Shown in pieces: positions 5,117-6,105 of a stretch of DNA of 64,000 bases. The notes beneath the pieces were generated by a model. That model saw only the letters and a list, made by a program, of their open reading frames with translations. It was not told the DNA's origin and did no database searches. The stretch is taken from assembly GCF_051903065.1 (NCBI RefSeq), contig NZ_CP178438.1. One strand, given 5' to 3'. The first letter of the stretch is position 1; every line of letters begins with the position of its first letter. The translations under genes and the position numbers were made by a program. The DNA is from Escherichia coli. GTDB lineage: Bacteria > Pseudomonadota > Gammaproteobacteria > Enterobacterales > Enterobacteriaceae.

Positions 5117-5689
5117 ATGTTTTGCGAAGAAAAAGTAGCTCAAATGGCTGCATACCTACTTCTTAAGCGAGGTGGGCGCATGGCATATCTGAAATTGATG
5201 AAGTTGCTCTATCTGTCTAACCGCCAGTCGATTTTGAAGCATGGCAGGATGATCGGCGAAGATAGCCTTTACTCTATGAAATTTGGACCAGTCATGTCGA
5301 ATACGCTGAACTTGATTCGCGGTAAGGCTGAAGGCATTGGTGACTACTGGTACAACTTGATAGAGACGAACGGGCATAATGTATCGTTGCGTTCAGATCC
5401 GAGGGAAATGGATGCAGACGAGGTCTTTGATGAATTGAGTCGTGCAGATATCCGGATTTTAGATGAAATCTATTCTCGGTATGGGCATATGAACCGATTT
5501 GATCTCGCAAATATGACGCATTTAGAAAGCGTTTGTCCAGAGTGGCACGATCCTGGCAATTCTCGTAAGCCTATAGACCTGAAAGAAATGCTGATCAGTG
5601 AGGGTAAAAGCGAGGATGAGGCTAATCGCATAATTGGCAAAATGGAAGAATCTCAGAAACTTAAGGAATTTTCTTTGCAATTATCATGA
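5117..5689 (+). CDS. DUF4065 / Panacea-domain-like protein (SocA/PanA-like putative antitoxin or immunity component)
   Basis: 190 aa; N-terminal AAYLLLK..., KLMKLLYLSNRQ and FGPVM motifs resemble the recalled Panacea/DUF4065 signature; stop overlaps the next start (ATGA). Confidence 0.55.
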   Translation: MFCEEKVAQMAAYLLLKRGGRMAYLKLMKLLYLSNRQSILKHGRMIGEDSLYSMKFGPVMSNTLNLIRGKAEGIGDYWYNLIETNGHNVSLRSDPREMDADEVFDELSRADIRILDEIYSRYGHMNRFDLANMTHLESVCPEWHDPGNSRKPIDLKEMLISEGKSEDEANRIIGKMEESQKLKEFSLQLS

Positions 5690-6105
5690 CGGATTATCAG
5701 CCATACAGGAAAGGAACTGTGCTTGCCCCAACTGGGCCATGCAATCATCTTCATGTGATTTGTAATGATCCTGTTTATTACCCCGTTAACGATTGTTATT
5801 GTGTTTTAGTTGTTAATATTTCTAGTATCAAGGATGGTGTCCCCCACGATCCGTCTTGCGTCTTGAATTCTGGTGATCATCGCTTTATCAAGCATCCAAG
5901 TTATGTTGTTTACGCTGAAGCTATAATTTGGCGAGTGGATAACATGGTTAGAAAGCAGCGATCGGGTGAGATTTCTGTTCATGATGATATGCCAGAAGCT
6001 ACATTCAATAGAATTCTGGACGGTTTTGATATCTCTGATGAAGTTACGCCAAAGAACCTTAAATTTAAAAATAAATATTGCGTATCATCTATTGATGATG
6101 AGTAA
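5686..6105 (+). CDS. hypothetical Cys/His-rich protein, candidate toxin/effector partner of the DUF4065 protein
   Basis: 139 aa, translationally coupled to the upstream gene; no family recognised; clustered Cys/His (GPCNHLHVICNDP...CYC...). Confidence 0.5.
   Translation: MTDYQPYRKGTVLAPTGPCNHLHVICNDPVYYPVNDCYCVLVVNISSIKDGVPHDPSCVLNSGDHRFIKHPSYVVYAEAIIWRVDNMVRKQRSGEISVHDDMPEATFNRILDGFDISDEVTPKNLKFKNKYCVSSIDDE

Follow-up and report, generated by a model that had tools for sequence, protein, structure and literature searches.

Toxins of 88 clusters (PanT) have Panacea proteins (PanA) as their antitoxins (Kurata et al. 2022, PNAS, PMC8832971), and a stand-alone Panacea domain can directly neutralise a toxin (Ernits et al. 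2023, PMC10440598). Here we describe a stretch of 64,000 nucleotides from Escherichia coli (contig NZ_CP178438.1; "the window") in which two genes, at 5117-5689 and 5686-6105, very probably form a PanAT type II toxin-antitoxin module on a dusA-integrated temperate phage, with a MazF-fold toxin of PanT cluster T6.

The validated pair of cluster T6 comes from Pseudomonas moraviensis. Its PanT (WP_083201923.1) is toxic in E. coli, is rescued by the cognate PanA (WP_083354365.1), and is pulled down with it; in assays that covered protein, RNA, and DNA synthesis, the toxin specifically blocked incorporation of 35S-Met (PMC8832971). The cluster was annotated as 'EndoA/PemK/MazF-family RNAses' by HHpred and, in the portion of Dataset S1 consulted, joins the P. 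moraviensis pair with many proteobacterial entries in the order antitoxin then toxin, at spacings of -4 or -1 (PMC8832971). RNA cleavage by T6 toxins was predicted by Kurata et al., not demonstrated.

A Panacea gene and its 139-residue partner

The features of the locus are collected in Table 1. The product of the upstream gene, panA, matches Pfam PF13274 over residues 27-137 (E value of 3.7e-19), begins with MFCEEKVAQ, and is named 'Panacea domain-containing protein' in RefSeq. The downstream gene, panT, shares the strand of this Panacea (PF13274) gene and lies less than 100 nt from it in a two-gene layout, the arrangement by which PanAT pairs are recognised. A first-pass annotation of the window, made from the sequence alone, had placed a 139-aa open reading frame (ORF) here, with a start codon that overlaps the stop of a DUF4065-like gene; the ORF has the sequence quoted, and the junction, read directly as tcATGAcgg, bears out the overlap. 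No Shine-Dalgarno sequence was found at the usual distance from the panT start, and the ATGA overlap implies that translation of panT would be coupled to that of panA.

RefSeq (PGAP) places the start of panT at GTG 5719, giving a protein of 128 aa (WP_014640052.1). Residues 1 to 11 of the longer product (MTxYxPYRKGT) are conserved across 34 relatives with 47-76% identity, and the phage record MT225100 starts the gene at the same ATG as at 5686. Because the N terminus is conserved in relatives and this start is used in MT225100, ATG 5686 is, on comparative evidence, the correct start codon. The RefSeq model begins 33 nt too far downstream, which costs it the 11 conserved residues as well as the ATGA coupling.

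Membership in PanT cluster T6

Model scans with Pfam, NCBIfam, and PADLOC gave no named-family match for PanT; two matches, to ICMT (E value of 0.075) and to DapC (17 bits, where the cut-off is 593), were set aside as spurious. Relatives are numerous. The protein matches PHROG 19071 ('unknown function') with an E value of 3e-31, word-indexed searching brought up 62 close clusters, from Enterobacterales, Vibrio, and Shewanella, and among 1.84 billion representatives searched with a profile there were 2,711 clusters at E≤1e-3, 924 of them at E≤1e-10. The AlphaFold database holds an identical E. coli protein (A0A192CFB7, 'uncharacterized') together with many relatives, and some relatives are labelled 'PemK/MazF family toxin' in UniProt.

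Related loci were scanned in one genome per GTDB species; 32 loci were returned, 29 with upstream DNA. A PanA homologue stands directly upstream of the PanT homologue, on the same strand, in all 29, and the same arrangement recurs in Proteus (six loci) and in one metagenome locus. These PanA-PanT loci span Gamma-, Beta-, and Alphaproteobacteria, and a panA/panT overlap of 4 bp or 1 bp recurs among them. Five loci belong to genomes in the T6 list of Kurata Dataset S1, as far as the consulted portion of that list shows, and have junction spacings identical to those published: Pantoea septica LMG 5345 and Halomonas stevensii S18214 (-4 nt each), strain 2016-Iso4 (-1 nt), Salinivibrio socompensis S35 (+1 nt), and Gluconacetobacter diazotrophicus PA1 5 (+15 nt). 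The PanT homologue of P. reinekei was matched with an E value of 2e-23, and the PanA of that species begins with IFSEQKVAQ, the same N terminus that the authors restored on P. moraviensis PanA. Relatives in the AlphaFold database with TM-scores of 0.83-0.9 include proteins from organisms that appear in the same portion of the T6 list (Beggiatoa alba, Gilliamella intestini, Rhodanobacter denitrificans, Malikia spinosa, and Neorhizobium galegae).

Because a Panacea gene lies upstream in all loci with upstream DNA and T6-listed genomes show matching spacings, sequence comparison places the 139-aa protein of the window in PanT cluster T6. The first-pass description of an orphan with no recognisable family therefore does not survive: the protein is an unannotated member of this cluster, an ordinary toxin-antitoxin component that represents no novel protein type. 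The accessions WP_014640052 and WP_000458584 are not among the Dataset S1 entries examined.

Two oddities of public annotation were met in this family. Pasteurellaceae members, met in Dataset S1 and among the AlphaFold-database matches (A0A0F5F199 and A0AAX1M463), are publicly labelled 'terminase', probably through an error that has spread between records. The PanT of the window falls in a 90%-identity cluster together with 190-aa PanA sequences and a 232-aa 'DUF4065' protein (P0093); such a mixture points to an artefact of clustering, or to gene calls that are fused or misframed at the ATGA junction.

The pair of the window resembles P. moraviensis PanAT in having a homologous PanT (~35-40% identity to Pseudomonas members), a homologous PanA with a shared N-terminal motif, the antitoxin-then-toxin order, a 1-4-bp overlap, and a MazF-like predicted fold. 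Enterobacterial T6 entries in the consulted portion of the list (Pantoea, Proteus, Pluralibacter, and Photorhabdus) are 55-87% identical to the PanT of the window. In contrast to the P. moraviensis toxin, this PanT carries a lineage-specific HLHVICNDP motif and extra Cys and His residues. The pair is also phage-borne and lies beside attP, whereas the validated P. moraviensis pair is marked 'NotPhage'.

Other described systems are more distant. SocAB of Caulobacter crescentus, whose SocA is the founding Panacea/DUF4065 antitoxin, shares the Panacea domain in its antitoxin, while its toxin, SocB (cluster T10), is unrelated to the PanT of the window. The target of SocB is the sliding clamp of DNA polymerase, and SocA is a ClpXP adaptor. 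The NCBIfam SocA model scores only 14 bits here, with a cut-off of 190. A type III system with an RNA antitoxin, of the ToxN/CptN/AbiQ kind, was considered and rejected: the region 4400-6500 contains no tandem repeats that could represent a repeat RNA antitoxin and no above-threshold Rfam match, its sub-threshold matches are confined to the 6337-6362 hairpin, and the locus encodes a protein antitoxin instead.

Predicted fold, conserved residues, and proposed mechanism

An AlphaFold2 model of PanT, built on an alignment of 34 sequences, had a mean pLDDT of 90.7 and a pTM of 0.84. In a Foldseek search with this model, a check that the first-pass annotation had itself proposed, the top 30 matches were all MazF (probability of 0.98-1.00). 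The model contains the SH3-like barrel of the MazF/CcdB type, with a shorter beta1-beta2 loop than that of MazF and extra helices at residues 84-93 and 122-131. As modelled, then, the PanT of the window is a divergent MazF/Kid-type SH3-like barrel. The proteins closest to it in structure are all either RNases or CcdB. A CcdB-like gyrase poison, which would combine the MazF-like fold with DNA gyrase instead of RNA as its target, is barely credible here: MazF and Kid outscore CcdB as structural matches, the antitoxin is a different one, and the validated T6 homologue specifically inhibits translation rather than DNA replication (PMC8832971).

Sequence comparison sets PanT well apart from MazF, Kid (PemK), and EndoA (PF02452). 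Identity to these proteins is 9-15%, and their antitoxins are of the MazE/Kis type, whereas the antitoxin of the window is a Panacea protein. An hmmsearch of the PanT family profile against PDB sequences returned only noise (E≥0.4).

Conservation was measured on a family-wide alignment of 107 sequences. His21 is conserved in 100%, Leu22, Asp55, and Tyr76 in 98% each, Cys58, His65, and Gly113 in 97%, Phe67 in 96%, Gly63 and Ser72 in 95%, and Ser117 in 93%; position 47 is Ser or Thr in 97%. All of the family-invariant residues are intact in the copy of the window. Of the 139 residues of the protein, 6 are Cys and 6 are His, a richness that had led the first-pass annotation to propose a metal-binding or small catalytic fold. 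Only His21, Cys58, and His65 of the 12 are conserved family-wide; H23 (39%) and C26 (24%) are not, and C19, C37, C39, C132, H54, H70, and H99 are variable, so that the Cys/His richness is, by this alignment, mostly lineage-specific. The catalytic half of the earlier proposal may well stand, on a MazF fold, while the metal idea, which was based on clustered Cys and His, loses most of its support, since 9 of these 12 residues are not conserved. A small zinc protein whose metal cluster defines its fold or function is accordingly very improbable. The composition suits such a protein, and H21, D55, C58, and H65 could supply four metal ligands; however, no CxxC or HxxxH pair, as zinc knuckles typically have, is present, and the predicted fold is a complete MazF-type barrel that needs no metal.

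PanT residues were mapped on MazF by motif and secondary-structure register rather than by a measured superposition, with HLHVICNDP set against HRPAVVLSP, VVNISS against VPCTTQ, and AIIW against SIAW (PanT and MazF, respectively). In this inferred register, His21 falls beside MazF Arg29 and Ser/Thr47 on Thr52, and Asp55, Cys58, His65, Ser72, and Tyr76 map to the two loops and the strand bordering the substrate groove of MazF. The conserved residues thus look, as far as the register can be trusted, like an active site in the MazF position that uses different residues, and not like a Cys/His metal cluster, although a His2-Asp-Cys metal site or a Cys-His-Asp triad is conceivable. MazF lacks the conserved His/Asp/Cys/His set.

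By analogy with the characterised systems, PanT is most likely a type II toxin restrained by PanA, and its chemistry is probably that of an RNase. PanA would be translated first from the shared mRNA, with panT following by ATGA coupling, and would bind PanT directly and hold it inactive. Free PanT would halt growth by blocking translation, as the tested T6 member does; the most probable mechanism would be metal-independent endoribonuclease cleavage of mRNA, tRNA, or rRNA at an active site in the MazF location, putatively formed by His21, Ser/Thr47, Asp55, Cys58, His65, Ser72, and Tyr76.

Direct binding also fits a structural prediction. A fused chain, PanA-(GGGGS)6-PanT, was folded with a paired alignment of 22 loci and gave a pTM of 0.83, with a disordered linker (pLDDT of ~36). 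The C-terminal helices of PanA (residues 155-190) were modelled with high confidence, and the length of the C-terminal extension (~50 residues) is conserved throughout the T6-linked PanAs. Because the whole-chain pTM is this high, the model suggests a confidently docked PanA-PanT pair, a prediction in agreement with direct type II neutralisation.

Several results weigh against the assignment of a MazF-like toxin-antitoxin function. At the level of sequence profiles, PanA and PanT match 0 families of PADLOC-DB v2 at E≤1, and 0 of the 107 family members match Pfam PF02452 (PemK) at E≤0.1. Comparison by hhalign of the PanT family alignment with a MazF/Kid/EndoA/ChpBK profile gave a nonsignificant probability of 0.4%; that profile was shallow (5 sequences), and a database search intended to deepen it yielded only near-identical Bacillaceae NdoA proteins. 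The catalytic Arg of MazF has no obvious conserved counterpart, Arg29 falling on Leu22 when the motifs are aligned. On the experimental side, the T6 results concern the P. moraviensis pair, and neither this E. coli copy nor any enterobacterial T6 member, and 8 of the 25 PanTs tested were nontoxic in E. coli, including a T1 PanT from an E. coli prophage (PMC8832971).

These points bear on two other explanations. In the first, the MazF scaffold would support another chemistry, in which a triad of Cys58, His65 (or His21), and Asp55, or a catalytic metal site, covalently modifies or cleaves a protein or RNA of the translation machinery; the toxin would then act differently from a classical MazF mRNA interferase. 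The 97-100% conservation of H21, D55, C58, and H65, the loss of a recognisable MazF catalytic Arg, and the missing PemK profile match in both the Pfam and the hhalign comparisons agree with such a chemistry, as does the finding of Kurata et al. that translation stops, with no showing of RNA cleavage (PMC8832971). We nevertheless regard it as unlikely, given that the close structural neighbours other than CcdB are all RNases and that Ser/Thr47 takes the position of MazF Thr52 in the inferred alignment. Two histidines, moreover, often serve as the general acid/base pair of metal-independent RNases.

In the second, the pair is conserved but this copy does not function as a toxin in E. coli, being either a nontoxic accessory or a toxin that depends on a phage trigger or target. 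The harmless PanTs listed above, one of them from another cluster in an E. coli prophage, and the accessory position of the pair in the phage, adjoining attP, speak for it. Against it stand the intact invariant residues, the tight ATGA coupling to the antitoxin gene that is kept across Proteobacteria, and the toxicity of the P. moraviensis homologue in E. coli itself (PMC8832971), and we consider it distinctly unlikely. An endoribonuclease toxin under PanA control is the reading that we prefer.

A broader and speculative proposal, somewhat unlikely as a whole, is that the T6 PanTs are a MazF-fold lineage in which His21-Asp55-Cys58-His65 (with Ser72 and Tyr76) has replaced the Arg/Thr site, giving either a new RNase chemistry or a Cys- or metal-dependent, non-RNase attack on the translation apparatus, with Panacea as the phage-sensing switch of a prophage abortive-infection system. 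What remains of interest beyond annotation is the catalytic chemistry of T6, whose conserved His/Asp/Cys/His differs from the MazF site, and the role of phage-borne PanAT. Panacea has been hypothesised to be a possible sensor (Ernits et al. 2023, PMC10440598), and under that hypothesis a panAT pair adjacent to attP in a dusA-integrating phage would make a convenient E. coli model for phage sensing.

Prophage setting, expression, and neighbouring features

The window starts with the E. coli chromosomal genes lexA, dinF, yjbJ, and zur and a DUF2713 gene. Given the displaced 5′ end of dusA, its phage-supplied replacement, and the integrase gene on the minus strand (Table 1), a ~38-kb prophage occupies the 5′ end of dusA, from roughly 4.87 to 43.3 kb, and 245 bp separate its left end from the start of panA. 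The PanT of the induced phage Lys8385Vzw is 100% identical to that of the window, and an identical protein is found in the induced phage SKA5 as well. The circular genome of Lys8385Vzw has the order int - attP - panA - panT, so that panAT occupies the typical accessory ('moron') position next to attP.

Table 1. Positions in the window of panAT and of the features around it
Feature	Position	Strand	Description
DUF2713 gene	3373-4395	+	Just outside the prophage
dusA 5′ end, displaced host copy	4755-4872		81% identical to the phage-supplied replacement at 43164-43281
Sigma-70-like promoter, weak candidate	4962-4990	+	TTGACC-17-TAAACT; sole match upstream of panA
Near-perfect palindrome	4962-4975		TTGACCATGGTTAA; overlaps the candidate -35 hexamer
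panA	5117-5689	+	190-aa antitoxin; stand-alone Panacea (DUF4065/SocA-like) domain plus helical C-terminal extension of ~50 residues
ATGA overlap	5686-5689	+	panT ATG at 5686-5688, panA TGA at 5687-5689
panT	5686-6105	+	ORF from ATG 5686 to TAA 6105, 139 aa
57-aa ORF	6145-6318	+	PHROG 2741, function unknown (E 8e-36); between panT and the terminator
Predicted intrinsic terminator	6337-6362	+	Hairpin plus T-run; first downstream of panT, after the 57-aa ORF
Tyrosine integrase	41982-43079		
Rest of dusA	43168-44205		Fused to the phage-supplied 5′ replacement

Because panAT adjoins attP, a 'moron' role is suggested, in which the pair would provide abortive-infection defence against other phages, retention of the prophage, or both. 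The 2-kb panAT segment is carried by 164 of 5,426 complete E. coli genomes (~3%); with its occurrence in at least two isolated phages, this is the range over which a 'hypothetical protein' can be renamed as a PanT (MazF-fold) toxin.

The promoter scan was not above chance (3 sites found against 4.7 expected). The palindrome that overlaps the candidate -35 hexamer could be an operator; PanA itself has no recognisable DNA-binding domain. Since the dusA fragment points toward panA and no terminator is predicted between the two, read-through from the host dusA promoter into panAT is possible in the lysogen. The 57-aa ORF downstream of panT was rejected as a third gene of the module, being absent from all other panAT loci examined.

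In the Proteus and Providencia loci (L002-L007, 650-3408), panAT lies at the tail-fibre end of a prophage, and its neighbours in Proteus vary (Abi_2, Peptidase_S8, and UPF0167 genes). The site looks like a defence or accessory hotspot; the Proteus context is suggestive of phage defence, although context is no evidence for it.

Two further observations concern neighbouring genes. The DUF2713 product has an N-terminal run of imperfect repeats, and in strain APEC E18005 its gene carries a frameshift annotation. In Lys8385Vzw (L041), a 188-aa early-region protein encoded at 6571-7137 is labelled 'valyl-tRNA synthetase', for which it is far too short; the label is probably a mis-annotation.
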